Assembly: GCA_934096815.1 (NCBI GenBank)
Contig: CAKOMY010000002.1
Location: 9,546-73,545, forward strand
DNA: 64,000 nt
Direction of reading: 5' to 3'
Source of the DNA: an uncultured Bacilli bacterium
GTDB taxonomy: Bacteria > Bacillota_I > Bacilli_A > RF39 > UBA660
Both the position numbers and the translations under genes were made by a program. The notes under the pieces are model-generated. The model was not told the DNA's origin. It was given only the letters and a program-made list of their open reading frames with translations, and did no database searches. Shown in pieces: positions 23,270-41,547 of the stretch (within the stretch, counting starts at the first letter, position 1; every line of letters starts with the position of its first letter).

Positions 23270-23294
23270 TTCACTATGGAATATGGTGATTTAT

Positions 23295-24788
23295 ATGAAT
23301 AAAGAAGAACAAATAAAAGTATATGTAATGATAGGAACAGTAGTGATGCTCTTAGTGATCTTTTCGGGAATAACATATGCTTTTTTTAGTGCCAGTAATA
23401 ATAAAGGAAGTACATCGATAGTAGAGGTAAAAAGTGGTAAAATGACAATAAGTTATGCAAATGGTAAAAGTAGATTGTTAGTATCAAAAGATATTCAACC
23501 AAGTGATAAGATAATAATAGATAAAACTTTTACATTAACAGGAACAAATACAACAAGTGGCTTAGCTATGCCATATAAGATAGGACTAAATTATGTATCT
23601 GAGTTTAGTGATGGACAAATACATTATTATATTAAAAGAACAAACGCCAATAGTAATATAACAAGTAATTTAGTAGGAACAGCAAATCAAACAATACCAG
23701 GAAATACCACTGAAACAGGATATACTACTGGGACACTTAAAAAAGGTAATAGATACTTAGAACTAGCAACAGGAGAATTTAAAGCAAACACAAGTAATCA
23801 AACAATAACATTTAATTTAAAAATCCAATTTCCTGTTACCGGAGTAAGTCAAGATAGTGAAAAAGGAAAAACACTAACTGGTGAAATAGTTGTAAATTAC
23901 GAAGAAACAGCAACTGATACCTTAATGGCTCTTTATGATAAAGAAACAAAGACAAATGAAGTATCAACAAGTGGATTATTTATTGATGATACTAAAGATG
24001 TAAATTTAAGATATACCGGAGCAACACCAAATAACTATGTCGAGTTTAATAATGAGACATGGAGAATAATTGGAATATTTAATGTATTTAATAATGAAAC
24101 TAAAAAAGTTGAAAAAATGATTAAAATAATAAGAAATGAATCTCTTGGATTATATTCTTGGGATACGTCTAATTCTAAAGTGAACGATGGAAAAGGAATT
24201 AATGAATGGAGTCAAGCAAAATTAATGTATGAATTAAATACGGATTATATAGACATTAGTAAAAGTGGAACAACTAAATGGTATAATGGTCCGGAAAATG
24301 CACAAAATGAAATTTATGAATATAGTAAAAACATAAATAGTGATTCGATGGATAAAATAGCAAATGTTAAATGGAATACTGGTGGAACAATATACGGAGT
24401 AAACGTAATTACTTCTTACAATCAAGAACGAGGAACAATTAATGTTGATAATCCGACAGATGGAATTGTTAGAAATAGTTATTGGAATGGTAAAATTGGA
24501 TTATTATATCCAAGTGATTATGGTTATGCATCCTCAAATGATATATGTAGAAGTCAGTTGAGTTCACCTGACTGTAAAAATAATAATTGGATTTTTATAG
24601 GTATGAGTCAATGGACAATAACTCCTTATAAAAATAGTAGTATGAGATCATTTAGTTCATTAGAACATGGTATTATAAATGATACCAATGTAAGCAATCC
24701 AAGTAATGTTCGTCCAACAATTTTTTTAAAAAATCATGTAAAAATAATAAGAGGAGAAGGAACAAATTCTAATCCATATCAAATATAG
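23295..24788 (+). CDS. Secreted protein, paralog family member 2
   Basis: Start moved to the ATG aligned with the other paralogs (MNKEEQIKVYVMIGT...); shares the conserved N-domain; mosaic C-region (middle like copy 4, end like copy 3) ending ...VRPTIFLKNHVKIIRGEGTNSNPYQI. Confidence 0.6.
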   Translation: MNKEEQIKVYVMIGTVVMLLVIFSGITYAFFSASNNKGSTSIVEVKSGKMTISYANGKSRLLVSKDIQPSDKIIIDKTFTLTGTNTTSGLAMPYKIGLNYVSEFSDGQIHYYIKRTNANSNITSNLVGTANQTIPGNTTETGYTTGTLKKGNRYLELATGEFKANTSNQTITFNLKIQFPVTGVSQDSEKGKTLTGEIVVNYEETATDTLMALYDKETKTNEVSTSGLFIDDTKDVNLRYTGATPNNYVEFNNETWRIIGIFNVFNNETKKVEKMIKIIRNESLGLYSWDTSNSKVNDGKGINEWSQAKLMYELNTDYIDISKSGTTKWYNGPENAQNEIYEYSKNINSDSMDKIANVKWNTGGTIYGVNVITSYNQERGTINVDNPTDGIVRNSYWNGKIGLLYPSDYGYASSNDICRSQLSSPDCKNNNWIFIGMSQWTITPYKNSSMRSFSSLEHGIINDTNVSNPSNVRPTIFLKNHVKIIRGEGTNSNPYQI

Positions 24789-24845
24789 TATATATAATAT
24801 AAATTACCATACATATTATAAATTACAAATAGAACAAAAATTCGC

Positions 24846-24873
24846 TTGACGGGGGGGCTTTTAAAGGTATAAT
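24846..24873 (+). promoter_or_regulatory. Consensus promoter with G7 tract (paralog copy 3)
   Basis: TTGACG plus G run, 16 nt, TATAAT; the whole 24786-24897 intergenic region is near-identical to 23180-23294. Confidence 0.55.
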
Positions 24874-24897
24874 TTCACTAGGATAAGGTGATTTTAT

Positions 24898-26457
24898 ATG
24901 AATAATAAAGAAGAACAAATAAAAGTGTATGTAATGATAGGAACAATAATAATGCTCCTAGTGATATTTTCAGGAGTAACATATGCTTTTTTTAGTGCCA
25001 GTAATAATAAAGGAAGTACATCAATAGTAGAAGTAAAAAGTGGAAAAATGACAATAAGTTATGCAGATGGTAAAAGTAGTTTATTAGTATCAAAAGATAT
25101 TCAGCCAAGTAATAAGATAATAATAGATAAAACTTTCACGTTAACAGGAACAAATACAACTAGTGGACTTGCCATGCCATATAAAGTAGGACTAAATTAT
25201 GTATCTGAGTTTAGTGATGGACAAATACATTATTATATTAAAAGAACGAATGCAAATGCAAATATCACAAGCAATTTAATTGGAACTGCAAATCAAACTA
25301 TACCAGGAAATATTTCTGAAACTGGTTATACTTTTGGAACACTTAAAAAAGGTAATAGATACTTAGAACTAGCAACAGGAGAGTTTAAAGCAAGCACAAG
25401 TAATCAAACAATTACATTTAACCTAAAACTACAATTTCCTGATACAGGTATCAATCAAGATAGTGAAAAAGGAAAAACACTAACTGGTGAAATCGTTGTA
25501 AATTATGAATCTGAAACTATTGCTAAAACAATTTCTAAATTAGATAAAGAAAGTAATGGACTTGAAATAGATGATACTGTAGATAAAAATTTAAGATATG
25601 TAGGAGTAAATCCTAGAAACTATATAACATTTAACAACGAAACGTGGAGAATTGTTGGCGTATTTAATAACATTACAACTATAGATGATAATGGAAATGA
25701 AAAACAAGAATCATTAGTAAAAATAATACGAGATGAACGTATAGGAAGCTATTCATGGGATAGTTCATCATCAGATATAAATGATGGTAGTGGAATCAAT
25801 GAATGGAGTCAAGCAGACTTAATGTATGAACTTAACTGTGATGGAACGTCTTCATCAAAATATTGTCGCGAAGATATAGCCGGTGGCTATTTATCAAACA
25901 TTACAAATGGAACAACTAAATGGTATAATACTCAGAATAATATTCAAGGTGCAACTTATTATTATAGTAAAAATGTCAAAAAGGAATATATAAATTATAT
26001 TGCAACTGCTAGATGGAATTTAGGTGGGGCAACATACGGCTCGAGTTCATTAAAATCATATAATGAGGAACGAGGAACTAACCATATAAGTAACCCATCA
26101 GATGGAATCTCAAGAACTAACTTTTGGAAAGGAAAAATTGCTTTATTGTATCCAAGTGATTATGGGTATGCTTCAACAGATTCATTATGTAGAAGTGATA
26201 TGCGTTCACAAACTAGTAATATTTATAATTGTCAAAATAATAATTGGTTATTCAATGGTACATATCAATGGACATTGTCTTCATTTTCTGATAGGGATAA
26301 AGCTATATTTAATTTCACTAATAAAGGGTGGGTAACTAATGTCGATGCATGTGCTAGTAGTAGCGTACGTCCAACTCTATACTTAAAATCTGATATTGTA
26401 ATAGTTGGAGGAACTGGAGAAAAAGGAGATACATATATAATAGATGAAATTAAATAA
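24898..26457 (+). CDS. Secreted protein, paralog family member 3
   Basis: N-terminal 60 codons nearly identical in DNA to the gene at 9695; C-terminal module ends VRPTLYLKSDIVIVGGTGEKGDTYII. Confidence 0.6.
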   Translation: MNNKEEQIKVYVMIGTIIMLLVIFSGVTYAFFSASNNKGSTSIVEVKSGKMTISYADGKSSLLVSKDIQPSNKIIIDKTFTLTGTNTTSGLAMPYKVGLNYVSEFSDGQIHYYIKRTNANANITSNLIGTANQTIPGNISETGYTFGTLKKGNRYLELATGEFKASTSNQTITFNLKLQFPDTGINQDSEKGKTLTGEIVVNYESETIAKTISKLDKESNGLEIDDTVDKNLRYVGVNPRNYITFNNETWRIVGVFNNITTIDDNGNEKQESLVKIIRDERIGSYSWDSSSSDINDGSGINEWSQADLMYELNCDGTSSSKYCREDIAGGYLSNITNGTTKWYNTQNNIQGATYYYSKNVKKEYINYIATARWNLGGATYGSSSLKSYNEERGTNHISNPSDGISRTNFWKGKIALLYPSDYGYASTDSLCRSDMRSQTSNIYNCQNNNWLFNGTYQWTLSSFSDRDKAIFNFTNKGWVTNVDACASSSVRPTLYLKSDIVIVGGTGEKGDTYIIDEIK

Positions 26458-26780
26458 TTTTATCAAAACAAAAAAAGATGATAAATATAGAAAACTTCAA
26501 TAATATATTTGATAAATTCCAAAAATATATTATAAATCATGGTTGGTGACATAAAAAAGGATTAAAATTCATAAAATTTTGTGCTGATTATTCTTGAATT
26601 TAATCGTATCATAAATATGTCGAAAGATAGTAATTTTGAAGGAAGAGAAACAGTTTAGCGACTAAGGAATCTCTTCTTTTATTTTATCTTAATATTCTTT
26701 AAATAATGTGCAATTCATTTTACACTATCTATGGCCCGTCAAGTGTAGTTAAAAAATTTTTAAAGTGAACCTACGTTTGC

Positions 26781-26808
26781 TTGACGGGGGGGTAAATGGC
26801 GATATAAT
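26781..26808 (+). promoter_or_regulatory. Consensus promoter with G7 tract (paralog copy 4, divergent spacer)
   Basis: TTGACGGGGGGGTAAATGGCGATATAAT; -35, G7 and -10 are conserved although the spacer sequence differs. Confidence 0.5.
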
Positions 26809-26838
26809 TTGACTATGATATAGGAAGGATAAAGAAGA

Positions 26839-28398
26839 ATGAATGAACAAAAAGTAAGAACAATTGTGGTTTTATCAATAATAATAATGATGATAGTGTT
26901 ATTTATTGGAATAACTTATTCTTATTTTACTGCTTTAAATAATAAAGGAAGTACATCATTAATATCAGCAACAAGTGGTAAAATGGTAATAAGTTATGCC
27001 GATGGATCTAGTAAATTATTATCAAGTGAAAATATACAGCCAAGTAATAAGATTTTAATAGATAAAACATTCACATTAACTGGAACAAATACAACTAGTG
27101 GCTTAGCCATGCCATATAAAGTAGGCCTAAATTATGTATCTGAGTTTAGTGATGGACAAATACATTATTATATTAAAAGAATGAGTACAAATAGTAATAT
27201 AACAAGCAAATTAGTAGGAACAGCAAATCAAACAATACCAGGAAATACAACTGAAACAGGATATACTACAGGAACACTTAAAAAAGGTAATAGATACTTA
27301 GAACTAGCAACAGGAGAGTTTAAAGCAAATACATCAAATCAAACAATAACATTTAATTTAAAAATCCAATTTCCGGATACCGGAGTAAGTCAAGATAGTG
27401 AAAAAGGAAAAACACTAACTGGTGAAATAGTTGTCAATTACGAAGAATCAGCAACTGATACCTTAATGGCTCTTTATGATAAAGAAACAAAGACAAATGG
27501 AGTATCAACAAGTGGATTATTTATAGATGATACTAAAGATGTAAATTTAAGATATGCAGGAGCAACACCAAATAACTATGTTTATTTTGGAAATGATAAT
27601 GAATTATGGAGAATAGTTGGAATATTTAATGTAACAGATTCAGAAGGTAATACAACAAGAAAACTAAAATTAGTAAGAGATTCAGCATTAGGTGGATACT
27701 CATGGGATGCAACTGGAAATAATAATCATGGATTTAATGATTGGACAGATGCAGATTTAATGAAAGAATTAAATGGAGATTATTTAAATACAACCTTAAC
27801 AGCCAATAAAACAAATTGGTACAATTCATATTGGGATTCTAGCACACAAAAACCAGTATTAAGACAAACAGGAACATTTAACTATACAACTGTCATAAAA
27901 GATAAATATCAAAACATGATAAGCAATAGTGTATGGAACATCGGTGGAAATAGTTATACCGATTCTACACCATATTCTATAAACTTATTAACTCAGTATA
28001 ATCGTGAGAGAGATAAAATAACCTATCAAAATAGTCGTCCTACCACTTGGATAGGTAAGGTTGGACTTATTTATGCAAGTGATTATGGTTATGCATCAAC
28101 TTATGCAGAATGTCATAAAAACTTAAGAGTAGGAGTAACTTATGATAAATCTACTAATAAGTGGGATTATTCTGGACTATGTAAAATAGATAACTGGCTT
28201 GCCAAGAACTCATGGTACTGGACATTGTCGCCTTACTCTGGTGACTCGTATCACGTGTTCTATGTGCATGGGGACGGTGCTGTCAACATCCTCGACGCGT
28301 GTCTTTCCAACAACGTTTTTCCGACAGTTTTCTTGAAATCTGATGTCAAAATAACAAGTGGAACAGGTGAAAAAGGAAGCCCATATATTTTAATTTAA
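26839..28398 (+). CDS. Secreted protein, paralog family member 4
   Basis: Divergent signal region (MNEQKVRTIVVLSIIIMMIVLFIGITYSYFTALNNKGSTS), same conserved N-domain, distinct C-region ending VFPTVFLKSDVKITSGTGEKGSPYILI. Confidence 0.6.
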   Translation: MNEQKVRTIVVLSIIIMMIVLFIGITYSYFTALNNKGSTSLISATSGKMVISYADGSSKLLSSENIQPSNKILIDKTFTLTGTNTTSGLAMPYKVGLNYVSEFSDGQIHYYIKRMSTNSNITSKLVGTANQTIPGNTTETGYTTGTLKKGNRYLELATGEFKANTSNQTITFNLKIQFPDTGVSQDSEKGKTLTGEIVVNYEESATDTLMALYDKETKTNGVSTSGLFIDDTKDVNLRYAGATPNNYVYFGNDNELWRIVGIFNVTDSEGNTTRKLKLVRDSALGGYSWDATGNNNHGFNDWTDADLMKELNGDYLNTTLTANKTNWYNSYWDSSTQKPVLRQTGTFNYTTVIKDKYQNMISNSVWNIGGNSYTDSTPYSINLLTQYNRERDKITYQNSRPTTWIGKVGLIYASDYGYASTYAECHKNLRVGVTYDKSTNKWDYSGLCKIDNWLAKNSWYWTLSPYSGDSYHVFYVHGDGAVNILDACLSNNVFPTVFLKSDVKITSGTGEKGSPYILI

Positions 28399-28401
28399 TA
28401 A

Positions 28402-28440
28402 AAAGGATATTGGAAAATAATAACAATATCCTTTATTTCT
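28402..28440. terminator. Bidirectional rho-independent terminator between convergent genes
   Basis: 10-bp stem aaggatattg/caatatcctt with 11-nt loop, flanked by A and T runs. Confidence 0.55.
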
Positions 28441-28996
28441 TTTTTAGTTTAAACCTATCTAATAATGTTTTTTTCTTTGTGATAATTTCATTTATTCTTA
28501 AGTTTATTAAATCTTCATCAGTTCCAAATACTTTAGCACAAAATTCTGGATTATGAAAATGATTTTCTAATTTAAGTAATTCATCTTTTGGAACTAATAA
28601 ATTTCTTGCCATATATTCCGCAAGTTCATTTCTTTGCATTTTTTCTATTGAACCATAACCTGTATGATAATTTATATTTTTAGAATTTAAATGAAACATA
28701 TAATAAGAAAGTAAATATAAAATTAGATATCTTTTATCTTTTGGTTTAAGATTTGATCTAATAACTATACTTTTATCTTTATTATTAACTCTTATGATTC
28801 CATCAATAAATGTTGGTAAGTTTTCATTTTCATAAACATTAAAATTAAATAGATCAGCAAGTTTTAATACTACAATTCTTTGAATATTAATATCATAATA
28901 TCTGTTTTTATATTCATAATTTTTATATACCTTAAATTCTTTTTTTATTTTATTAATTGTTTCATCTAATTCTTGTTTTGTTAATTCATCAATCAT
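28433..28996 (-). CDS. Degenerate ImmA/IrrE-like (DUF955) protein lacking the HEXXH zinc motif, paralog A
   Basis: Architecture I-x-V-N...R-x-R-[YF] then LLSYYMFH where HEXXH is expected, followed by the ELAEYMARNLLVP motif typical of the family C-terminus. Confidence 0.4.
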   Translation of the reverse strand: MIDELTKQELDETINKIKKEFKVYKNYEYKNRYYDINIQRIVVLKLADLFNFNVYENENLPTFIDGIIRVNNKDKSIVIRSNLKPKDKRYLILYLLSYYMFHLNSKNINYHTGYGSIEKMQRNELAEYMARNLLVPKDELLKLENHFHNPEFCAKVFGTDEDLINLRINEIITKKKTLLDRFKLKKK

Positions 28997-29017
28997 ATAA
29001 TTAATCCTTTCTAATTG

Positions 29018-29268
29018 GTTTATTGGATATTTCCAACTTATATGTATTTGTATTTGTTATTATATCATAAACTTTAGAAGAAACAAGTTCATATTTTCTT
29101 GTTAAAAAAGTATCAGATATTTTAGAACTAATTAATATATCACTTTTAATATTCCTTAAGTAATGTTGTCCTCTTTTATCAAAAACAAGTACTTTAACAT
29201 ATATGGTATCACAATTTTTTCGGTCTTCTTTAGTTAATCAAATTAAAATATGAATAAGCATTAATGTA
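29018..29268 (-). pseudogene. 3'-terminal remnant of a tmcAL paralog (product of a tandem duplication)
   Basis: About 250 bp, about 80% identical in DNA to 29985..30235 (C-terminal 85 codons of tmcAL) but interrupted by stops. Confidence 0.6.
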
Positions 29269-29397
29269 GAAGAAATTGTAAAAAATAACTAAAAAACAAA
29301 TATTTTTTACTTTACCTGTAATTTATATAATTTTATATGTCATATATATCAATACAACTTTTAATTAAGATTATTTTATCAATTAAATTATAACAAT

Positions 29398-29961
29398 TTA
29401 GTTCTTTATTTTATTTATTAAATTTTTAACAGTATTGTCATTTTTAAGATAATATAACTGTTCACACATAATTTTTAAATTTACACTAAATATTTTAGTA
29501 CATAAAGTTGGATACAAGTAATAATTTTTAATTTTATTTAATTCTTCTTTTGGAACTAAAATATTTCTAGCTATATATTCAGCATTCTTATCTCTGTATT
29601 TAAAATCTTCTTCAGTATCAAATGATTGCAAAAAAATATAATCTTCATTTGCATGTAATAAATAATACGATAATAAATACATAATAATATATCTTTTATT
29701 ACTTAGACTTCTGTGTTTATTAACAATTATTTTTTTATATTCATTATTAGTATATAAAATACCATCATTTAAATCAGGAAGAATATCACTTTCTTCAATT
29801 TCTACATCAAATAAATTTGCAAGTTTAACTGTGTTTACTTTTTTTATTTCAATCTTATTGTGATTAATGTAATATTGATTTGTATCAAATGCAATATCAA
29901 GATTTGTTTTAATTTCATTAATTTTATAATCTAAAATATCTTTATTCACATTTTCATTCAT
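29398..29961 (-). CDS. Degenerate ImmA/IrrE-like (DUF955) protein lacking HEXXH, paralog B
   Basis: 187 aa, same length as 28433..28996; YLLSYYLLHANE in place of HEXXH, then AEYIARNILVP. Confidence 0.4.
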   Translation of the reverse strand: MNENVNKDILDYKINEIKTNLDIAFDTNQYYINHNKIEIKKVNTVKLANLFDVEIEESDILPDLNDGILYTNNEYKKIIVNKHRSLSNKRYIIMYLLSYYLLHANEDYIFLQSFDTEEDFKYRDKNAEYIARNILVPKEELNKIKNYYLYPTLCTKIFSVNLKIMCEQLYYLKNDNTVKNLINKIKN

Positions 29962-31566: not shown

Positions 31567-31843
31567 AATAGGAATTTAAGTAGTCAAAAAATGCAGAACA
31601 AATTACTCTAAATTTGCACAATATATGTTGATAAAATCATATGTTATTCCTATAGACAGGTGAATTTGATGAGCTTAACAAAAAAGTTTATAAATAGATA
31701 AAGCGACAAAAGAAAATATATAGTTATAACAATGGAATATATTCAATTTATGAAAAATATCAACAAAAGAAATTTAAATCATACTTTTTTATTGTTTTAT
31801 CGTTAATTTTATTATATACTTTAAGCGTAAGGATGTGATAGTT

Positions 31844-33250
31844 GTGGGAAAAGTAAAATTATTAATATTTAGCATCATAGCATGTTTATTTATTAATGTA
31901 AGTGCTCTTACATATACTGAAGAAGAAGTAGTAGATAGAATTAATTCATCTAAAGTAAGTGTAAATGAGTTATTAGGGGATTTAATAAATTGGTCTGATA
32001 CAAATAAAAATGCGACTAAAAAATTAGTTAACAAAGATTTTGTTAAAAGCATTAATTCTTTAGACTTTGAAACTAACTTAAATAAGACAATAAGTAAATT
32101 AAGAAATAGTGGAGAGATTAAGGCTGCTAATGACTTAGAAGCATTAAAATCAAAACTTTTAAATAATTATAATAGTTATAAAGAAACACTTAAAATAACT
32201 AAAACTTATTTAGAAGAAAGAAAAGATTATGGAGTTAATGGTAATTTAGATGTATTTATAGCAATTAGAGAACTTGCTAAATATAATAAGTCTAGTATAT
32301 CTTCTTTAGGAAAAATATATTATAGTGATGCATTTGATTATATATATGATAATATTGATAAATATACTATTGATGAGGTAATTAGTGAATTTGATTATAT
32401 TTATGAATTAGATATTGTTAATAAACTATTTAATAAGTCTGATGAGTTTATGGCAATTTATAATGATTATCATTTAGAAGACTATGATGATTTATTTAAG
32501 GATTACTTTGGAAGTTATTATAGTACTTTAAAGAAAGATTATTATAAATTATATGATAAATTAGAAAGTAAATATCAGGCTATTTTAGAAAAGAAAGTTA
32601 AAGAAATAGTTGATAATACTGATTTGAGTAGTGATGCAAGTATTACAAATAGAAATAACAAATTATATGAATTAATAGATGAAATAGATTTAACAAGTAA
32701 TAAGTTAAATACTAGATTTAATAATATTGATTCTAAAATTAAAATAGCAAGTATTAAAAAATATACTAAAGAATATCAAACTGAAGCATTAAATAGATTT
32801 GAAGAAGCAAGTAATTATGTAAGAAAATATATTATTGATAATCTTAAATTAGATGTTAAAAATGATTCTGATAGAAAAGATTTTCAAATAAATATGGCAA
32901 AAGAAATGATTATTTATAGTGGTACAAATTTAGACATTTCAGTTATTGATAAACTTGTAAGTAATTATGGATTTTTAAGAACTGTAAACTTATTTGGAAA
33001 TAATGTTGGTACAGGAAGTAGAATTCAAATTATTAATAATGAATTAATTGTAAAAGATTTCTTATTCATAGTTAAAGGTGATGTTAGTGCATCAGGAAGA
33101 ATAGATATTTCTGATGTAGTTAAAATGGCTAATAAGATGTTTGATAAAGTTAATTTAAGTGAATTTGAAATGATGGCTGCTGATATGAATGATGATAATA
33201 AAATTGATATTACTGACATAGTATTACTTTGTAACAAGATATTTAATTAG
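31844..33250 (+). CDS. Secreted protein with C-terminal type I dockerin-like domain
   Basis: Signal peptide (cleavage near VSA-LT); two 12-residue Ca-loop repeats at the C-terminus, DVSASGRIDISD and DMNDDNKIDITD, each followed by a hydrophobic helix; GTG 31844 preferred on RBS spacing (track start 31835). Confidence 0.5.
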   Translation: MGKVKLLIFSIIACLFINVSALTYTEEEVVDRINSSKVSVNELLGDLINWSDTNKNATKKLVNKDFVKSINSLDFETNLNKTISKLRNSGEIKAANDLEALKSKLLNNYNSYKETLKITKTYLEERKDYGVNGNLDVFIAIRELAKYNKSSISSLGKIYYSDAFDYIYDNIDKYTIDEVISEFDYIYELDIVNKLFNKSDEFMAIYNDYHLEDYDDLFKDYFGSYYSTLKKDYYKLYDKLESKYQAILEKKVKEIVDNTDLSSDASITNRNNKLYELIDEIDLTSNKLNTRFNNIDSKIKIASIKKYTKEYQTEALNRFEEASNYVRKYIIDNLKLDVKNDSDRKDFQINMAKEMIIYSGTNLDISVIDKLVSNYGFLRTVNLFGNNVGTGSRIQIINNELIVKDFLFIVKGDVSASGRIDISDVVKMANKMFDKVNLSEFEMMAADMNDDNKIDITDIVLLCNKIFN

Positions 33251-33258
33251 GAGGATAT

Positions 33259-34092
33259 ATGAAAAAGATTAAAAATTTATTAATACTTGTACTTGCTATT
33301 ATTTTTACAGGAAATGTTTATGCTGCAACAGCTACAACAAGTATTACAGGAACTAATACAGTTAAAGTAGGAAATACAACTAAAATTTATATTAAATTAA
33401 ATGCAAGTGATTTAATTGAAGGTGTAGATGTAACTTATGCTGCATCAGGAAATATTCAGGTTACTAATGCTGTTATTGGTAGTGGCCTAACTCAAATGGG
33501 AAAAAATGGAAATAGATACATTCTATATGCTCAATCACCAATTAAAAGTGGATCAACAGTTTTAACACTTACAGTAAAGGGTACAAAAGAAGGATCTGGA
33601 ACAATAACAGTATCAAAAATGGAAGCAACAGTAAGTGGTGGAACAGTAAATGGTGGAACAAAGTCTTATAATATTAAAGTAAATCCTGCTAAAACTGCTT
33701 CAGAAATAAAAGCTGAAGAAGAAGCTGCTAAAAATAAAGAAGAAGAAAGAAAAGCAAAGGAAGAAGCTAATAAAAAAGCTTTGGAAGAAGCAAAAAAATT
33801 AGTAGAAGCTGCTGAAAAATCACTTAATAGTGAAGATTATGATGCTGCTTTAAAAGCAGTAAATGCATTAACTGATTCAGATGATAAAACAAAATTAGTT
33901 GAAAGATTAGATAAAGTAAAATTTGATATTGAAGTAAATAAAGCTGCGTTAAATAAATGTTCAAATAAAGAACCAAATCAAACTGTATGTAACAATGTTG
34001 ATTGTAAGAAATGGATACTTCTTTCAGTAATCTTATTTGTTGGATTATTAACTGAAACAGCATATATTATTATTCGTAAAAATAATAAATAA
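33259..34092 (+). CDS. Membrane-anchored surface protein: signal peptide, about 125-aa beta-rich domain (possible cohesin-like), E/K/A coiled linker, C-terminal TM anchor
   Basis: Signal VYAATAT; S/T/G/V-rich beta domain; EEEAAKNKEEERKAKEEANKKALEEAKK linker; C-terminal WILLSVILFVGLL...RKNNK. Confidence 0.4.
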   Translation: MKKIKNLLILVLAIIFTGNVYAATATTSITGTNTVKVGNTTKIYIKLNASDLIEGVDVTYAASGNIQVTNAVIGSGLTQMGKNGNRYILYAQSPIKSGSTVLTLTVKGTKEGSGTITVSKMEATVSGGTVNGGTKSYNIKVNPAKTASEIKAEEEAAKNKEEERKAKEEANKKALEEAKKLVEAAEKSLNSEDYDAALKAVNALTDSDDKTKLVERLDKVKFDIEVNKAALNKCSNKEPNQTVCNNVDCKKWILLSVILFVGLLTETAYIIIRKNNK

Positions 34093-34151: not shown

Positions 34152-34167
34152 TGTTTAAAAAATAAAA

Positions 34168-34284
34168 GTGGGTGCAAAAAGGTGCAAGTACAACCAAAAA
34201 GTGGGTGCAAAAAGGTGCAAGTACAACCAAAAAGTGGGTGCAAAAAGGTGCAAGTACAACCAAAAAGTGGGTGCAAAAAGGTGT
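34168..34284. repeat. 33-bp direct tandem repeat, 3.5 copies (GTGGGTGCAAAAAGGTGCAAGTACAACCAAAAA)
   Basis: Three perfect copies (34168, 34201, 34234) plus a partial fourth; intergenic; GC-richer than the surroundings. Confidence 0.85.
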
Positions 34285-34403: not shown

Positions 34404-34502
34404 ATGAATATGTTTACAATCTTTTTTATAGGATTATTTATAGGTGGATTATTAGGTATAACCTTAATGTGTATGTTACAAATTAATAAAGATAAGTATT
34501 AG
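34404..34502 (+). CDS. Small hydrophobic peptide (32 aa), possible membrane micro-protein
   Basis: AAAGGAGAAATAAGTTT-ATG RBS; MNMFTIFFIGLFIGGLLGITLMCMLQINKDKY is a single TM helix; followed by a hairpin and T run. Confidence 0.3.
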   Translation: MNMFTIFFIGLFIGGLLGITLMCMLQINKDKY

Positions 34503-34616: not shown

Positions 34617-34952
34617 ATGGAAAAACAAGATTTGAAAAAAATAAAAAGAAAAGATCTTTTAGAATTATTACTGGCACAGACTAATAGAATTAGAGAATTA
34701 GAAGAAGAAAATATAAAACTTCAAAATGAATTAAATAATCGAAAAATTAAGATTGATGAATCAGGAACACTTGCAGAAGCAGCTCTTAAGCTTAATAATC
34801 TTTTTGAAGATGCTGAGAAAGCTATCGATGATTATTTTTACAATCTTGAAGCTAGGCAGGGTAATAGTATATCCAAAAAAGATACTATAGTTACAATAAA
34901 TAATATTAGAAAGCCACTTAATAATAAGAAAAGTAATTATGAAAAAAACTAA
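34617..34952 (+). CDS. Coiled-coil protein, hypothetical
   Basis: 111 aa with heptad-like charged pattern; overlaps the start of the signal peptidase gene. Confidence 0.3.
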   Translation: MEKQDLKKIKRKDLLELLLAQTNRIRELEEENIKLQNELNNRKIKIDESGTLAEAALKLNNLFEDAEKAIDDYFYNLEARQGNSISKKDTIVTINNIRKPLNNKKSNYEKN

Positions 34953-35529
34953 AGAAAAACTAAATTATAAAGATTTAATTGTTTCAGATATTGAAGATGA
35001 AATTGCTAGAGAAAAATATAAAAAAAGTTTTACTAAAATACTTACAAATACCTTATTTATATTATTAATTATTTTAGCAGTTGGTTCAATTATAACAACT
35101 ATCTTTATGCCAGTTATAGAAGTTACATCATCTAGTATGAAACCAATAATTAATGATGGTAATTTAATTTTAAATTTTAAAACTAATAATTATAGAACTG
35201 GAGATATAGTTTCATTTTATCATGGTAATAAGATACTTATTAAAAGAGTTATTGGAACTAGTGGAGATTTTATAAATATAGATATAGATGGGAATGTGTA
35301 TGTAAATGGAAATAAAATAAATATTCCTAATGTTACAAACTTAAAAAAGGGGAATGGAGATGTAACTTTTCCTTTACAAGTACCAGAAAATTCTTTATTC
35401 GTATTAAGTGATGAAAGAGATAATATGTTTGATTCAAGGACTAGTGAAATAGGTTTTGTAAGTAAAAATGACACAATAGGTAAGGTTATTTTAAAAATTT
35501 ATCCATTAAATGAGATAAGAATCATATAA
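34939..35529 (+). CDS. Signal peptidase I (S26 family, P-type), pilus-locus associated
   Basis: N-terminal TM; SSSMKP (Ser box), IKRVIGTSGD (Lys box), LSDERDNMFDSR (GDNRxxSxDSR-like box). Confidence 0.7.
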   Translation: MKKTKEKLNYKDLIVSDIEDEIAREKYKKSFTKILTNTLFILLIILAVGSIITTIFMPVIEVTSSSMKPIINDGNLILNFKTNNYRTGDIVSFYHGNKILIKRVIGTSGDFINIDIDGNVYVNGNKINIPNVTNLKKGNGDVTFPLQVPENSLFVLSDERDNMFDSRTSEIGFVSKNDTIGKVILKIYPLNEIRII

Positions 35530-35548
35530 TAACTTAGCGGGAGGTTTT

Positions 35549-37816
35549 ATGAGAAAACTTAAACAATTTATCTTATTGTTCTTTATATTCATTTTCGTAC
35601 TAAATCCTTTTTTAAATGTTTTTGCAAGTAATAATGAACAACAAATTAAATATATTGGTACAACTACAACTGGTGAAAAGGCTACAATTAGTAAAATTAT
35701 TACTCCTTCAGAATTAGAAAATTATTTTGATATAACTTTAAAAGTTAAAACAGAAGAAGAACTTAGAAAGCAAGATATGTCAATTGTAATAGTTATGGAT
35801 ATATCTAATACTATGAATGATTATTTAGATATAAATAAAACGGATACTAAATATGATGCTGCAATTAAAGCGATGGAAAGTTTTATTAAAAAGTTTGCGA
35901 GTGTTTCTTTAAATGTTCCAAACTCTGTAACTCGTAAAATTGGATTTGTTGCTTTTAATACTGATGCTCATTTAATATTTTCCTTAAGTGATTGTAAAAC
36001 GCAAGAAGAAGCAGATGCTTTAATAGATAAAATGAAAACAAGTACTAAAAAAATTATTAAAGCTGATGGCTATAAAGATTCTCACTTACGATTTACTAAT
36101 ATTGAAGCTGGATTAAAAGCATCTAGTGATATGCTTACTTATGTTACTTCTAATAAACATGTTATTTTCTTATCGGATGGTTTTCCAACAACTTATATTT
36201 CATCTGGTTACAAAGGATATGATCCATATACAATTTATAAAGCAAACAGTAATGATTCTAAAGAAGGATATTTCTTTGATGGTAAAAAAACTACAACTTC
36301 AAATAATCAAAAAGTATGCTTATATGGAACTAGTTATAGTGATAGAGGAGCAATAAAAGCAAGGAATATGGCTATACAAATGAAAAAAAATAATATAACT
36401 ATCCATTCAGTAGGTGTTGGAATAATCAAAAAAGAAGATGGAGGAACTTTAAAAACTATTGCAGAATATCGTAGTCAAAGTAATAAAAGTAATTTTTCGG
36501 TTATCGATGTTGATAAAAATGCAACCAAGTATGAAATTGGTGGTGAAAATGATTTAGAAGGATATAAAAATTGGTTAAAAAATAAAATTGGTTCAAACAT
36601 ATATTATGATGCAACAGATACAGCGGGAATGAATGAAGCGTTTAATGGAATATTTGAAAATGTAAAGCTTTTATCTGAAGCAGGTGAAGTAATAGATCCA
36701 ATGGGTGATGATATTGAGTTTGTTAAGTTTTATAATAATCAAGATAATAAAGTTACATATGATAATGAGACAATTAAATGGAATTTAAAAGATTCTAAGT
36801 TTGTAACAAGTGTTAAAGATAATATTACTTATTATGAATATGAACTTAAATATCAAATAAGATTAGAAAATGAAAATCCTGATTTTAATTATAATAATGC
36901 TATCTCTACTAATAAGAAAACAACCTTAAGTTATGTTATTAAAAATGGTGATGATACTATTATTAAAACATTAGATTTTAAAATTCCTACCATAGAAGGA
37001 TATTATGCTTCATTAGAGTTTGATAAAAAATCAGATTATAAAAATGAAATACTTGAAGGAGCAGTTTTTGAACTTATTCATGATGATAATTGTTCTTGTA
37101 TGAGTGAGTCTAAACATATTGATAAAAATTATAAATTAACGGCAAGTTCAAATTCTAATGGTAAGGTTGTATTTAATAAAGTTCCTTCAGGACATAGTTA
37201 TAAATTACATGAAATAGAGACTGATGAATATCATAGTTTAGATGATAATTATTATAATATAAAGATTGATTTTGGGTTACTTACACATAACATAGCTAAT
37301 AATACAATTATAAATAATATAATTAAGAAGGATTTAATTATAAGTAAAGTTGTTAAAAATATAACAACTAATAAATCATTTGATTTTGAAATAAATGCAA
37401 ATTATAAAAATAAACAATTAAATGGTACATATCAAGTTATTAGAAACACAAGTGGTAAAGAAACTAATGAATCAATAACATTTATAGATGGCAAAACTAA
37501 GTTTAAATTAAAAAATAATGAATCAATAACAATTAAGGATTTACCTTTTAAAATAGATTTTAATATTAAGGAATTAAATTATGATGGTTTTAGTGTTAAG
37601 TATCAAATTAATGATGGAGATATAAAGAAATTTAATGATAATAAAATAAAAAGTAGTTTAGAAGATGATATGAAAATAAAATTTATTAATTATTCAGGAT
37701 ATATGATGCCTGAAACTGGTAGTAATAAAATGTTAATTTTAGCAATAATAGGTACATTTTTAGTTTTAATACCTATTTTGTATATATCAGTTAATACTTT
37801 TAAAAAGTTTAACTAA
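35549..37816 (+). CDS. Pilus tip adhesin candidate: vWA (MIDAS) domain surface protein with C-terminal sortase signal
   Basis: Signal peptide; vWA MIDAS IVIVMDISNTMND (DxSxS) and ...IFLSDGFPT; C-terminus MPETG, then hydrophobic helix, then KKFN. Confidence 0.6.
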   Translation: MRKLKQFILLFFIFIFVLNPFLNVFASNNEQQIKYIGTTTTGEKATISKIITPSELENYFDITLKVKTEEELRKQDMSIVIVMDISNTMNDYLDINKTDTKYDAAIKAMESFIKKFASVSLNVPNSVTRKIGFVAFNTDAHLIFSLSDCKTQEEADALIDKMKTSTKKIIKADGYKDSHLRFTNIEAGLKASSDMLTYVTSNKHVIFLSDGFPTTYISSGYKGYDPYTIYKANSNDSKEGYFFDGKKTTTSNNQKVCLYGTSYSDRGAIKARNMAIQMKKNNITIHSVGVGIIKKEDGGTLKTIAEYRSQSNKSNFSVIDVDKNATKYEIGGENDLEGYKNWLKNKIGSNIYYDATDTAGMNEAFNGIFENVKLLSEAGEVIDPMGDDIEFVKFYNNQDNKVTYDNETIKWNLKDSKFVTSVKDNITYYEYELKYQIRLENENPDFNYNNAISTNKKTTLSYVIKNGDDTIIKTLDFKIPTIEGYYASLEFDKKSDYKNEILEGAVFELIHDDNCSCMSESKHIDKNYKLTASSNSNGKVVFNKVPSGHSYKLHEIETDEYHSLDDNYYNIKIDFGLLTHNIANNTIINNIIKKDLIISKVVKNITTNKSFDFEINANYKNKQLNGTYQVIRNTSGKETNESITFIDGKTKFKLKNNESITIKDLPFKIDFNIKELNYDGFSVKYQINDGDIKKFNDNKIKSSLEDDMKIKFINYSGYMMPETGSNKMLILAIIGTFLVLIPILYISVNTFKKFN

Positions 37817-37831
37817 GAAAGGAAAAAGAGA

Positions 37832-39220
37832 ATGAAAAGTATAAAAAGACTTATTTGTATGTTATTTATGTTAGTGCTTTCTATTGTAAATGTTAGTGCA
37901 GCAGAAAAAGGTACAATAATAATTAACAAAGCAATTGTTAATGAAAGTTATAATATCTATAAAGTATTAGATTTAGAAACTTATGATAAAGTTAATAATC
38001 ATTACATTTATAGAGCAACAAACGAGTGGAAAGCATTTTTAGATGAAACAACTGATTATTTAGAAGTAAAAAATGAAAATGGGGATAAATATTATATTTG
38101 GAAAGATGGGGTTGATAAGGCAAAAGCTAAAGAATTTGCTGAAGCAGCATATAAATATGCAAAAGATAATAATATTACTCCAACTATGACTAAAAAGGCT
38201 ATATCTACATCTGTTAAATTTGATAATTTGGAATTAGGATACTACTTAGTAGATTCATCAGTAGGAGCTTTACTTCATTTAACTACAACTAATCCTAGTG
38301 CAATAGTTAATGAAAAGAATACATTAAATCCTAATGTAGATAAAAATGTATTAGAAAATAGTACTGGAACTTATGGTAAAGAAAATGATGATATGATTGG
38401 AAGTACTATTAGTTATAAGACTACAATAACAACTGGTGCTGGATATGGAAATTATGTATTATATGATGTAATGGATAAAGGTTTAACATTTAATGTTAAT
38501 TCTGTAGTAGTTAAAATTGGTGATGAAGTTGTAGATAGTACTAACTATATAGTTAAAACAAATGTTACTGGTTATACATTTGTAGTAGAATTTAATAATG
38601 ATTTTATTCTTAAACAACCTAAAAATATTAATATAGATGTTTATTATACTGCAACATTAAATAAAGATGCTATTGTTGCTGGTAGTGGTAATGTTAACGA
38701 AACATATTTAGAATATGGAGAAAAAACAGCAACTGATAAAAGTAAAACAACAACTTATACATATTTATTTAACCTAGTTAAAACTAATAAAGAAGGTGTT
38801 GAATTAAACGGTGCTGAATTTAAATTATTAGATAAAAATGATAATGAAATAAAAGTAGTTTTAAAAGATGAAGTAAGTAATACTTATAGAGTTGCTACTG
38901 GAAGTGAAGAGGGAGTAACAATTAAAGTAGGACACGCCATTATTGAAGGTTTAGATAAAGATTCATATAAATTATTAGAAGTAGTTAGTCCAGAAGGATA
39001 TAATAAATTAACAAGTCCAGTAGATATTCAAATTAATGGGAAAACAAATAGTTCATCTTATGAAATAGCTGAAATTAAAGTAATTAACTATACAGGATCA
39101 GAACTACCAGAAACAGGTGGAATAGGTACTAAAATGTTTATTACAGGCGGTTTATCATTAGTGCTTATTTGTGGATTAGTATTAGTTACAAAATTAAGAT
39201 TATATAAAGAAAATTTATAA
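37832..39220 (+). CDS. Backbone (major) pilin subunit with LPETG sorting signal
   Basis: Signal peptide; CnaB-like GAEFKLLDKNDNEI; E-box-like YKLLEVVSPEGYN; C-terminal ELPETGG, then TM, then KLRLYKENL. Confidence 0.65.
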   Translation: MKSIKRLICMLFMLVLSIVNVSAAEKGTIIINKAIVNESYNIYKVLDLETYDKVNNHYIYRATNEWKAFLDETTDYLEVKNENGDKYYIWKDGVDKAKAKEFAEAAYKYAKDNNITPTMTKKAISTSVKFDNLELGYYLVDSSVGALLHLTTTNPSAIVNEKNTLNPNVDKNVLENSTGTYGKENDDMIGSTISYKTTITTGAGYGNYVLYDVMDKGLTFNVNSVVVKIGDEVVDSTNYIVKTNVTGYTFVVEFNNDFILKQPKNINIDVYYTATLNKDAIVAGSGNVNETYLEYGEKTATDKSKTTTYTYLFNLVKTNKEGVELNGAEFKLLDKNDNEIKVVLKDEVSNTYRVATGSEEGVTIKVGHAIIEGLDKDSYKLLEVVSPEGYNKLTSPVDIQINGKTNSSSYEIAEIKVINYTGSELPETGGIGTKMFITGGLSLVLICGLVLVTKLRLYKENL

Positions 39221-39258
39221 TAATTATTATAGTAAAGATTGAAGGAGGTTAAAGTAAT

Positions 39259-40107
39259 ATGAATAAAAGAAATACTATAATTATGATAATATTATTTTTC
39301 ATAGGACTTTTAACCCTCTTTTATCCTACTTTAAGTAATTATTATAATGAAAAAATAGGATCTAAAACTATTTATAATTATGAAAATATAATTGATAGTT
39401 ATGATTTTAATAAATTTAAAGAAATAAAAGATAACGCTATTAAGTATAATAAATATTTATCTAAATTAAGTGATCCTTTAATAGATTATAAGGAAATAAA
39501 GAATTATGAAAATATTCTTAATGTAAATGATGAAGGAATGATGGGGTATTTATCTATCGATAAAATTAGAGTTGAAATACCTATTTATCATGGAACTAGT
39601 AATGATACATTAAACAGTTTTGTAGGACATGTTGAAGGAACTAGTCTTCCAATAGGTGGAAATAGTACTCATAGTGTTTTATCAGCTCATAGAGGACTTC
39701 CATCAGCTAAATTATTTTCTGATTTAGATAAGTTAGAGGTAGGAGATACATTTAAAATTATTGTACTTGATGAGGCTTTAACTTACAAAGTAGATAAAAT
39801 ATCAATAGTTAAACCTAATAATAGTAAAGAATTAATGAATGTTAAAGATAAAGATTATGTAACTTTAATTACTTGTACTCCTTATGGAATTAATACGCAT
39901 AGATTATTAGTAAGAGGAGTAAGAGTAGATAATAATATTAATAAAGTTTATATAAGTACAGAAGGATTTAAAATAAATAAGCTAATAGTAATACCTATTT
40001 TAACATTACCTATAATAATACTATTAATATTAATTATAGTAATTAAACCAGTTAAGAAACCTAATAATATGATATTTAAAAAGTATCTATATCCTAATGG
40101 AAAATAG
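39259..40107 (+). CDS. Class C (pilus-assembly) sortase
   Basis: N-terminal TM, HRGLPSAKLF (catalytic His region), TLITCTPYGINTHRLLVRG (TLxTC Cys, Arg), C-terminal hydrophobic lid/anchor. Confidence 0.8.
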   Translation: MNKRNTIIMIILFFIGLLTLFYPTLSNYYNEKIGSKTIYNYENIIDSYDFNKFKEIKDNAIKYNKYLSKLSDPLIDYKEIKNYENILNVNDEGMMGYLSIDKIRVEIPIYHGTSNDTLNSFVGHVEGTSLPIGGNSTHSVLSAHRGLPSAKLFSDLDKLEVGDTFKIIVLDEALTYKVDKISIVKPNNSKELMNVKDKDYVTLITCTPYGINTHRLLVRGVRVDNNINKVYISTEGFKINKLIVIPILTLPIIILLILIIVIKPVKKPNNMIFKKYLYPNGK

Positions 40108-40115
40108 GAGGTAAT

Positions 40116-40997
40116 ATGAAATATTTAAAATTTATATTGTTAATATTAATGATATTTACAACTAATGTATTTGCTAATAATTATAGTGTGGACTTAAGTG
40201 TAAGTGGTAAAATTAATATTGAATTAACCGATAAAGAAAATAATGAATCTATCAAAGGAGTAGAATTAACTTTATATAAGATTGCAAATGTTTTAGAAGA
40301 AGATAATCATTTAATTTACAAATATGTTGATAATATTAATTGTGATATATCTTTAGATAATTTAGAATCTAAGGAACTTTCAGATAAAATTAATTTATGT
40401 GTAAATGATGATTTAATTCTTGATACTAAAGTAACTGATTTAGAGGGGAAAGTTACATTTGATAATTTATCTTTAGGTTTATATTTAGTTAAGCAAACTA
40501 ATAAAGTTAAAGGATATTCTAGTATTAATTCATATTTATTAACTATTCCTAAAGTAGAAGATAATAAATTTATTTATGAAATAAATAGTAAACCTAAAAC
40601 TGATATTTTAAGATTAATGAATCTTACTGTTAAAAAAGTTTGGAATGAATCATTAAGTAACAAAAATGATTTAGAAAGTTTACCTAAGTATGTTGAAATT
40701 GGTTTATATAAAAATAATAAATTAATAGATAAGGTTAAATTAGGTAAAGATAATAATTGGGAATATACTTGGTTAGATATAGAAAAAAGTGATGATTATA
40801 ATGTATTAGAATTAAATGTTCCTAAAGGATATATTGCTACTTATGAAGAAATAGATAATACTTTTATTATTACTAATACTAAGACTTTAGTACAAACTGG
40901 TAATAATTATTATTTAGTAGTAATTTTAGGTAGCTGTGGAATAATACTTATATTATTAAGTATTATTTATAATAAATATAAGGAACATAATGAATAG
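40116..40997 (+). CDS. Minor/basal pilin candidate with non-canonical sorting signal (LVQTG)
   Basis: Signal peptide; CnaB-like GVELTLYKI and LYLVKQTNKVKGY; C-terminus LVQTG plus TM plus KYKEHNE. Confidence 0.5.
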   Translation: MKYLKFILLILMIFTTNVFANNYSVDLSVSGKINIELTDKENNESIKGVELTLYKIANVLEEDNHLIYKYVDNINCDISLDNLESKELSDKINLCVNDDLILDTKVTDLEGKVTFDNLSLGLYLVKQTNKVKGYSSINSYLLTIPKVEDNKFIYEINSKPKTDILRLMNLTVKKVWNESLSNKNDLESLPKYVEIGLYKNNKLIDKVKLGKDNNWEYTWLDIEKSDDYNVLELNVPKGYIATYEEIDNTFIITNTKTLVQTGNNYYLVVILGSCGIILILLSIIYNKYKEHNE

Positions 40998-41547
40998 AAT
41001 ATCTAAATTATTATTGTTAATGGGAATTATTTTATTATCTTTATCTATTTTATTATATTTTTATTTTCAACTAGAAGAGATATGTTCTAGAAAAACGGTT
41101 AAGGATACTATGAATAATTTAATTAATAATGGTAGTGAAGTTATTCATAATGATAATTTTGATATTAAGGTTATTGATAATGAAGAATATATTGGGTATT
41201 TAGAGATACCTTCTTTGAATTTATTATTACCTATAACTAATGGTTATTCATATAACTCTTTAAGGAAAAGTCCTGCTTTATATTATGGAAATTTAAATAG
41301 TAATTTGGTTATTTGTGGACATTCTTATAAGGCTCATTTTGGTAATTTATATAAATTAAAACAAGGGGATACTGTTATTTTTAGAGATATAAATAATAAT
41401 AGGTATGTTTATGAAGTGGAGACAGTAGAAATTCTTAAACCTACTGAAATTAAGGAAATGATTGAAAGTAATTTTGATTTAACTTTATATACTTGTACTA
41501 AAGATAGTAAAAGTAGAGTAACTATTAGATGTAATAGGGTAGGTTAA
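40990..41547 (+). CDS. Second, small sortase (185 aa)
   Basis: N-terminal TM, ICGHSYKAHF (His), LTLYTCT (TLxTC-like Cys), RCNRV (Arg). Confidence 0.6.
   Translation: MNRISKLLLLMGIILLSLSILLYFYFQLEEICSRKTVKDTMNNLINNGSEVIHNDNFDIKVIDNEEYIGYLEIPSLNLLLPITNGYSYNSLRKSPALYYGNLNSNLVICGHSYKAHFGNLYKLKQGDTVIFRDINNNRYVYEVETVEILKPTEIKEMIESNFDLTLYTCTKDSKSRVTIRCNRVG

Follow-up and report, generated by a model that had tools for sequence, protein, structure and literature searches.

Can one cohesin and one dockerin, encoded side by side and apart from any cellulosome, hold a single protein on the surface of the cell that makes it? This question is raised by a 64,000-nucleotide stretch of contig CAKOMY010000002.1 from an uncultured Bacilli bacterium (the whole stretch is hereafter called the window), in which two adjacent genes encode a secreted protein that ends in a dockerin (gene 1) and a membrane-anchored protein with a cohesin-fold ectodomain (gene 2). 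Building on the observed domain identities, operon layout, strict co-occurrence, and conservation pattern, we give a probability of roughly 0.7 to the reading that the two genes are transcribed together and make up a self-contained pair for surface display, in which a cohesin anchored by a transmembrane helix would capture a dockerin-tailed cargo; the binding, the topology, and the calcium dependence in this reading are predicted.

The two genes and the dockerin tail

The window is strongly AT-rich (GC content about 20–29% throughout) and contains both open reading frames (ORFs) described in a first-pass annotation that was made from the sequence letters. The features on which the argument first depends are as follows.

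31844..33250, + strand: gene 1, secreted dockerin-tailed protein, 468 residues, GTG start (ORF and homologue starts)
31829..31833, + strand: AAGGA ribosome-binding site of gene 1 (read from sequence)
33259..34092, + strand: gene 2, membrane-anchored cohesin-fold protein, 277 residues, ATG start (ORF; 20 homologue clusters)
33250..33254, + strand: GGAGG ribosome-binding site of gene 2, overlapping the TAG stop codon of gene 1 (read from sequence)
33074..33247, + strand: type I dockerin of gene 1, residues 411–468 (Pfam PF00404; solved-dockerin profile matches)
33080..33115, + strand: calcium-binding loop 1, DVSASGRIDISD, residues 413–424 (read from sequence)
33182..33217, + strand: calcium-binding loop 2, DMNDDNKIDITD, residues 447–458 (read from sequence)

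Gene 1 begins at GTG 31835 in the ORF list, and the first-pass annotation took GTG 31844. The latter is most likely the true start, because the homologues of gene 1 start with MGKVKLL or MRKVKLL and because the AAGGA site lies 10 nt upstream of GTG 31844 but just 1 nt from GTG 31835. Only 8 nt separate gene 1 from gene 2, the GGAGG site stands 4 nt before ATG 33259, and no terminator-like site was found between the two genes. This combination of a short gap, a ribosome-binding site placed over the upstream stop codon, and a missing terminator points to a single transcript, on which translation of the two genes may possibly be coupled. A consensus promoter scan performed no better than on shuffled sequence, and an Rfam scan of the window found nothing.

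The dockerin assignment can be made from sequence profiles. Pfam PF00404 (Dockerin_1) matched gene 1 with 26 bits (E 1.1e-5) over profile positions 1–56 of 57, so that the hidden Markov model (HMM) search suggested by the first-pass annotation gave a match above Pfam's own gathering cutoff of 22.9 bits. The two calcium-binding segments quoted there are exact, with Asp, Asn, or Ser at positions 1, 3, 5, 9, and 12; a hydrophobic helix follows each of them, and LSEFEMMAA stands between the two. Specifically, DVSASGRIDISD is followed by VVKMANKMFD and DMNDDNKIDITD by IVLLCNKIFN, giving two segments of ~22 residues whose starts are 34 residues apart, and two duplicated segments of calcium loop plus helix are the general dockerin pattern (PMC5429695). 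Across 19 sequences, the invariant residues are D413, S417, G418, D421, I422, and D424 in loop 1 and D447, N449, D451, D455, I456, T457, and D458 in loop 2. A strict pattern scan recovered both 22-residue repeats with the 34-residue offset in the window and in three of five related type-A lineages.

Matches to dockerins of other organisms fall on the same part of the protein. The profile of the gene 1 family matches about a dozen solved dockerins at residues 410–467 (including 2y3n, 1ohz, 1daq, 2ccl, and 4uyq), and a motif-seeded genome scan also matched Ruminococcus, Acetivibrio, and other dockerins, in this case to residues ~390–467 of gene 1. All full-length gene 1 homologues carry PF00404 (21 homologue clusters), other family members score 33–39 bits with this profile, and nine of ten distant cargo homologues have a Dockerin_1 match, five of these above the Pfam threshold. 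Dockerin contacts run through helices 1 and 3, position 11 included, and the internal symmetry of dockerins underlies a dual binding mode (PMC5429695). As the two repeats of gene 1 are near-symmetrical at the contact positions (I-S/I-T at 10/11, A-N/C-N at 17/18, and F at 21), its dockerin could possibly bind in either of two orientations.

The partner ectodomain and the conservation of the pair

If gene 1 carries a dockerin, the obvious place to look for its receptor is the gene that follows. Two features define the outward part of gene 2.

33259..33324, + strand: signal peptide of gene 2, residues 1–22, cleavage after VYA (read from sequence; V20 and A22 invariant)
33325..33693, + strand: cohesin-fold ectodomain, residues 23–145 (AlphaFold2 and Foldseek)

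The AlphaFold2 (AF2) model of the ectodomain, built on a 17-sequence alignment, is all-beta and confident, with a predicted local distance difference test score (pLDDT) of 96.8 and a predicted template modelling score of 0.89. In a Foldseek search against the PDB, ranks 1–4 are all occupied by cohesins (2jh2_A, 2w1n, 2jh2_C, and 2xdh; TM-scores 0.70–0.81). The top match, 2jh2_A, is a cohesin-like module of C. perfringens (E 2.8e-8, TM-score 0.81/0.76, root-mean-square deviation 2.5 Å); 2w1n is the GH84C cohesin, 2xdh is a non-cellulosomal cohesin of Archaeoglobus, and the type II cohesin 1qzn appears at rank 10. The best non-cohesin match has a TM-score of 0.63 (4lee) and 9ifr one of 0.62, with adhesin and CARDB-type beta sandwiches among the lower-scoring folds. 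The structure prediction that the first-pass annotation had proposed for this ectodomain thus yields a confident model whose four best PDB neighbours are cohesins, and on this model the ectodomain of gene 2 has a cohesin fold.

The two genes also stay together. In 16 of the 16 loci that reach past the dockerin gene, the partner gene follows after 1–17 nt; these loci are L001–L004 (one version, with the partner split), L005–L007, L009–L013, and L028–L032, they comprise 13 distinct sequence versions, and their cargo identity ranges from 97% to 25%. The neighbours on the far side vary between genomes and include a pilus locus, a sugar transferase, an AMP ligase, an ATPase, and a tRNA synthetase. 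Because adjacency is constant while the flanks vary, the gene pair travels as a unit.

Conservation within the two proteins is concentrated in the modules that would meet. In comparisons with L005 and L012, the two most diverged pairs of the window type, identity is 64% and 78% for the dockerin, against 35% and 52% for the cargo and 38% and 42% for the beta module that precedes the dockerin. The corresponding values for gene 2 are 68% and 82% for the ectodomain, 43% and 63% for the spacer, and 35% and 48% for the transmembrane region. Dockerin and cohesin are therefore the most conserved parts of their own proteins in these two comparisons.

The partner ectodomains fall into two types, namely a window type of ~123 residues and a short type of ~100 residues in L028 and L032, which resemble each other weakly (hhalign 71% probability). 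Only in L028 and L032 do both dockerin repeats change from D-I-[ST]-D...[AC]-[ND]..F to S-A-[LF]-D...R-[NK].I-M, with most of the calcium-loop scaffold retained despite this switch in the recognition residues. Positions 10/11 and 17/18 are what we take to be the classical specificity determinants of the cellulosome literature. The pattern is suggestive of co-variation between the dockerin recognition residues and the partner ectodomain type, as a single switch event rather than a statistical trend. The short-type ectodomain (L028 4395–5264; L032 1946–2563) has a motif of its own, VSVSTxS…SFTI…GRVDI.

A broken partner was seen in one version of the locus. In L001 (7421–8243), and likewise in L002–L004, the cohesin gene is frameshifted into ORFs of 115, 54, and 77 residues while the dockerin gene is intact. 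The break involves at least one frameshift beside a run of Lys (AAA/AAG) codons and is identical in four independent sequencing runs; it could mean that the gene is a true pseudogene or is phase-variable, or that the same assembly error recurs.

Overall, the profile match, the cohesin fold, the constant adjacency, the joint conservation, and the co-variation support the cohesin–dockerin pair that was proposed from the letters. The accompanying word 'minimal' holds within limits: our own HMMs of both modules found one dockerin and one cohesin in the 64-kb window, and each related metagenome-assembled genome (MAG) has one locus with this dockerin signature, so that the description applies at this scale and not genome-wide.

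Cargo, membrane stalk, and competing explanations

What would such a pair display, and how would it be held? The remaining parts of the two proteins are listed below.

31844..31906, + strand: Sec-type signal peptide of gene 1, residues 1–21, cleavage after NVSA (read from sequence)
31907..32833, + strand: helical cargo region of gene 1, residues 22–330 (AF2 model)
32834..33073, + strand: small beta module of gene 1, residues 331–410, just before the dockerin (AF2 model)
33694..33777, + strand: charged E/K/A-rich spacer of gene 2 (family alignment)
33778..33957, + strand: helical juxtamembrane module of gene 2, residues 174–233, motif AEKSLxxxDYxxALxxVNxL...K..L..RL..V (BLAST match to the L028 partner)
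33958..34011, + strand: Cys-containing segment of gene 2, residues 234–251, three Cys (family alignment)
34012..34089, + strand: C-terminal transmembrane helix of gene 2, residues 252–272, with LTETAY, and basic tail RKNNK (read from sequence)

The AF2 model of gene 1 (overall pLDDT 74) has helices over residues 26–327, with pLDDT mostly 70–95 and a low dip near residues 189–203, followed by strands over residues 336–410 with pLDDT 81–91. The N-terminal part of ~400 residues, which the first-pass annotation had called uncharacterised, is indeed without a family or fold match; it is not one single domain, however, but a helical region of ~310 residues and then a beta module of ~80 residues, whose role may be like that of the X-modules found beside some dockerins. 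Foldseek searches with the cargo gave no significant match in the PDB (best E 0.029, TM-score below 0.3, generic helical repeats) and only generic helical repeats among the viral models of BFVD, and no cargo family was found in Pfam, NCBIfam, or PHROG. An exhaustive phmmer search with the cargo alone returned 24 proteins among 1.84 billion representative proteins. Because the full-length family members all have 453–482 residues and nine of the ten distant members match a dockerin, the cargo is known in one architecture only, the dockerin-tailed one. It lacks a catalytic signature, and its most likely role at the surface is therefore structural or adhesive, not enzymatic. The x-V-x-A cleavage site is kept across gene 1 homologues and Cys14 is not; we therefore rejected the idea that gene 1 is a lipoprotein (IIAC, residues 11–14), as the Cys is missing in many homologues while the downstream x-V-x-A is conserved.

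Gene 2 has the layout described at first pass (signal peptide, beta-rich domain, charged helical spacer, and C-terminal transmembrane helix), and this architecture is the same across the family. The spacer, which may span the cell wall, varies by lineage and is E/K-rich here and T/K-rich or T/N-rich in other family members. The juxtamembrane module aligns with that of the L028 partner (34% identity, E 5e-16 by BLAST) even though the two ectodomains are unalignable, and it has a sub-threshold match to Pfam GA_3. Cys residues before the transmembrane helix recur in all full-length family members, and an E-x-x-Y/F element is kept inside the helix (LTETAY, IVESAY, IMENIY, LLETIY), with the Glu invariant. 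Retention of a charged residue within the membrane helix suggests an intramembrane interaction. No LPXTG motif was found in gene 2, its homologues, or gene 1, and gene 2 matched neither the NCBIfam sorting signal nor Gram_pos_anchor, a profile that the neighbouring pilin at 37832 matches weakly.

These parts can be assembled into a putative mechanism. Gene 2 would be exported, lose its signal peptide, and stay in the membrane through its C-terminal helix as a type I membrane protein, with the short basic tail probably inside the cell. The juxtamembrane module and the variable spacer would hold the single cohesin at a distance from the membrane, probably so that it reaches through the cell wall. 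Gene 1 would be secreted through the Sec pathway, and its dockerin would then fold around two calcium ions and plug into the cohesin of gene 2. The helical cargo and the beta module would thereby be tethered non-covalently to the surface of the producing cell.

Several observations weigh against the two genes forming a self-contained pair, and we consider them together with the alternative explanations that they favour. Two concern the modules themselves. The three helices of the dockerin region in the AF2 model (residues 422–433, 439–447, and 456–467) reach a pLDDT of only about 45–55, in a model made with a 19-sequence alignment and no calcium. Moreover, gene 2 has no PF00963 match at E-values up to 1, nor did NCBIfam or searches of the PDB, by phmmer and with the family profile, identify it as a cohesin. 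The cohesin profile search named in the first-pass annotation thus came back empty, the ectodomain lying beyond sequence profiles; because the cohesin is invisible to them, this check by itself would have failed.

The other observations concern context. In L005 (2012–8247), L028 (404–5264), L029 (460–5506), and L030 (981–7316), the pair stands at the end of a block that runs in the order CpsB phosphatase, a sortase of ~380 residues with a long N-terminal ectodomain, a multi-pass membrane protein of ~247 residues, the dockerin protein, and its partner. The membrane proteins of L005 and L028 are homologous (37% identity, E 1e-20), and in the window a locus of signal peptidase, pilin, and sortase genes comes after the pair. 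The two genes might then form just the last part of a larger system for envelope assembly, in which the helical protein is a coat or layer subunit and the cohesin–dockerin contact is one step. We regard this as improbable, because homologues of the block's sortase, membrane protein, and Cps proteins were not found near the pair in the window or in its close relatives, where the pair is nonetheless intact, and because LPXTG motifs are absent from both proteins of the pair. In addition, the shared block could be a gene order inherited among related organisms, and similarity between the N-terminus of the sortase and the cargo is unsupported (hhalign 10% probability); homology between the N-terminal ectodomain of the ~380-residue sortase and the N-terminus of the cargo was rejected on this value. 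Where the contig reaches far enough, in L005 and L030, Wzz and a CpsD-like kinase precede the block.

A related proposal, which we put forward as conceivable though unlikely, is that the helical protein is the subunit of an undescribed cell-surface coat of these uncultured low-GC gut Bacilli, anchored by the cohesin–dockerin joint to a transmembrane stalk instead of by SLH domains or a sortase, and co-assembled elsewhere with the long sortase, the ~247-residue membrane protein, and CpsBCD-type regulators. If this were true, a surface layer or adhesin would be anchored on the cohesin–dockerin principle, with a cargo fold that has no known relative.

Alternatively, the dockerin may be real and its receptor elsewhere, be it a second cohesin encoded in the genome, one made by a neighbouring species, or a ligand that is not a protein. 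In that case gene 2 would encode a separate surface protein, whose cohesin-like beta sandwich serves another role such as adhesion, and its adjacency to gene 1 would just reflect shared regulation of envelope proteins. The binding of gene 1 to gene 2 is itself a prediction, the ectodomain is without a cohesin sequence signature, other beta sandwiches are present in the Foldseek list (9ifr at 0.62 and 4lee at 0.63), and a study of C. lentocellum discusses cross-species recognition and non-canonical cohesin partners (PMC13487519). We find an external receptor quite improbable nevertheless, as adjacency holds at 25–39% cargo identity while the flanks change, dockerin and ectodomain are the slowest-evolving parts of their own proteins, and the dockerin contact residues shift with the ectodomain type. 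Cohesins also lead all other folds by a clear margin, and the 64 kb contain no second cohesin-like or dockerin-like ORF.

Lastly, that the tail is a generic EF-hand-type calcium-binding segment rather than a working dockerin, with the fold match of gene 2 due to convergence among small beta sandwiches, is very improbable: the Pfam score is just 3 bits over the threshold, AF2 models the tail with low confidence, and of ten distant homologues four are sub-threshold and one has no match, but the match spans the full profile, both 22-residue repeats keep their 34-residue offset in the window and the three type-A lineages named above, other members reach 33–39 bits, solved and cellulosomal dockerins match the same residues independently, and no other segment of the gene 1 protein is as conserved.

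Distribution, surroundings, and known systems

How widely is such a pair distributed? Scanning species genomes for the dockerin signature recovered eight of 185,579 species, with one locus per related MAG; every one of the eight is a MAG from an uncultured gut Bacilli, 'Tenericutes' or 'Clostridium sp.' bacterium. Among them, CAKOQK010000001.1 is the closest (97% identity), and the family was seen only in MAGs of uncultured gut Bacilli or 'Tenericutes' and in metagenome contigs. A homology search with the dockerin alone yielded six short fragments without recovering known members of the family, and so is of no use as a census. A phage or mobile origin of the pair was rejected, as no relative was found in 2.9 million viral contigs.

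Directly downstream of the pair in the window, at 34939–41547, lies a complete sortase-dependent pilus locus, which comprises an S26 signal peptidase, a tip pilin of the VWA/GBS104 type (755 residues), a backbone pilin with LPXTG-type anchoring, a sortase, a Cna_B/SpaA minor pilin, and a second sortase. The intergenic region after gene 2 (34164–34283) holds a perfect 33-bp tandem repeat, AAAAGTGGGTGCAAAAAGGTGCAAGTACAACCA, in 3.6 copies with 100% match. The same array is found in L006, which is 97% identical, though built from another variant of the unit (…GCAAGCACAAACA) and one copy shorter; because the L006 array differs in both unit and count, the repeat units appear to be homogenised per genome and the copy number to be strain-variable. 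A small ORF at 34405–34501, also conserved in L006, has an AAAGGAG ribosome-binding site and encodes a hydrophobic peptide of 32 residues, MNMFTIFFIGLFIGGLLGITLMCMLQINKDKY; its shortness keeps it out of the ORF list.

Upstream, three consecutive genes at 23283–28398 encode proteins of ~500–519 residues that have a hydrophobic segment at the N-terminus and belong to no Pfam family. In at least the one at 26839, this segment ends with …GITYSYFTA and may resemble the signal peptides of TasA/camelysin-type proteins, which are substrates of SipW-type signal peptidases; the gene at 34939 encodes an S26 peptidase. On the - strand at 28433–29961, two tandem paralogous genes of 187 residues each interrupt the + strand gene order, and the one at 28433 has an IrrE/M78 peptidase-like domain (24.7 bits versus a Pfam threshold of 22). 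Beyond the pilus locus, at 41718–43579, an AAA_21 gene (AbiEii-like ATPase) is followed by an overlapping RloB-like gene, an arrangement typical of candidate defence systems.

Non-cellulosomal and one-to-one cohesin–dockerin pairs are already known, and the question becomes how far this one departs from them. In C. perfringens, a cohesin–dockerin interaction assembles a two-protein toxin (PMC5429695). The modules of this species (GH84 family proteins; 2jh2 and 2w1n) are the closest structural relatives of the gene 2 ectodomain, at 11–12% identity and with no sequence-profile similarity to gene 2 detected, and like the present pair they are non-cellulosomal and use a single cohesin to join two proteins. 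They sit, however, on large secreted glycoside hydrolases and toxins, whereas here the cohesin is carried by a small transmembrane stalk, the dockerin by a non-enzymatic helical protein, and both by dedicated adjacent genes. The Archaeoglobus fulgidus cohesin 2xdh, the fourth-best match (TM-score 0.70/0.64), likewise comes from an organism without a cellulosome, but it is archaeal and has a different protein context. It is not known to have an adjacent dedicated dockerin-cargo gene of the present type.

The nearest parallel in gene layout is ClcC/ClcD of Cellulosilyticum lentocellum, reported as the only cohesin and dockerin of that genome, whose genes are adjacent and apparently co-transcribed and whose heterodimer has been shown experimentally (PMC13487519). 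Both systems have one cohesin gene and one dockerin gene next to each other. ClcD, however, is a GH5 cellulase, and ClcC has CBM3 and X2 modules and no cell anchor, so that the complex is cell-free and targets cellulose. In the window, by contrast, the cargo contains no carbohydrate-active enzyme (CAZyme) or carbohydrate-binding module (CBM), the cohesin is membrane-anchored, and the dockerin gene comes first. The two dockerins differ as well: here position 11 carries a hydroxyl residue in each repeat, while ClcD keeps its Ser-Thr pair in one repeat only.

The anchoring scaffoldins of cellulosomes and the single-enzyme surface cohesins of C. thermocellum follow the same logic, in that a cell-bound cohesin catches a secreted dockerin protein in a calcium-dependent manner (PMC13487519, PMC5429695). 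Anchoring scaffoldins use SLH or sortase anchors, in contrast to the C-terminal transmembrane helix with conserved Glu and the Cys-rich juxtamembrane module of gene 2, and here one cohesin serves one dedicated client, unconnected with polysaccharide degradation. Amylosomes and mucinolysomes are likewise found in gut bacteria and use cohesin–dockerin binding for purposes other than cellulose (PMC4611034, PMC12997984), but they are multi-enzyme systems with several cohesins and many dockerin-bearing CAZymes, and the present arrangement is one-to-one with a non-enzymatic cargo. Nor is the pair a cellulosome: gene 2 contains only one cohesin-fold domain, with neither a CBM nor any other Pfam domain, the cargo belongs to no CAZyme family, and the window contains no other dockerin. 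What sets it apart from the known systems is thus a cohesin beyond the reach of sequence profiles, the transmembrane anchor with its juxtamembrane module, a non-enzymatic cargo without a known fold, and confinement to a small gut clade. No paper linking cohesin–dockerin binding to RF39-type organisms was found.

Non-cellulosomal cohesin–dockerin pairs have been catalogued with their biological roles mostly unknown, and the present pair offers a directly testable case. Such a system could hardly be simpler, with one socket on a membrane stalk and one client plug that are always encoded together. Its ectodomain illustrates that cohesins can diverge past sequence profiles, and censuses based on PF00963 would consequently undercount them. 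Orthogonal display tags could be drawn from the two specificity types that occur in nature (I-S/T with A/C-N versus A-L/F with R-N/K). For the organisms themselves, uncultured human-gut Bacilli whose surface biology is almost unknown, the pair may provide a way of keeping a dedicated protein on the surface of the cell that secretes it.

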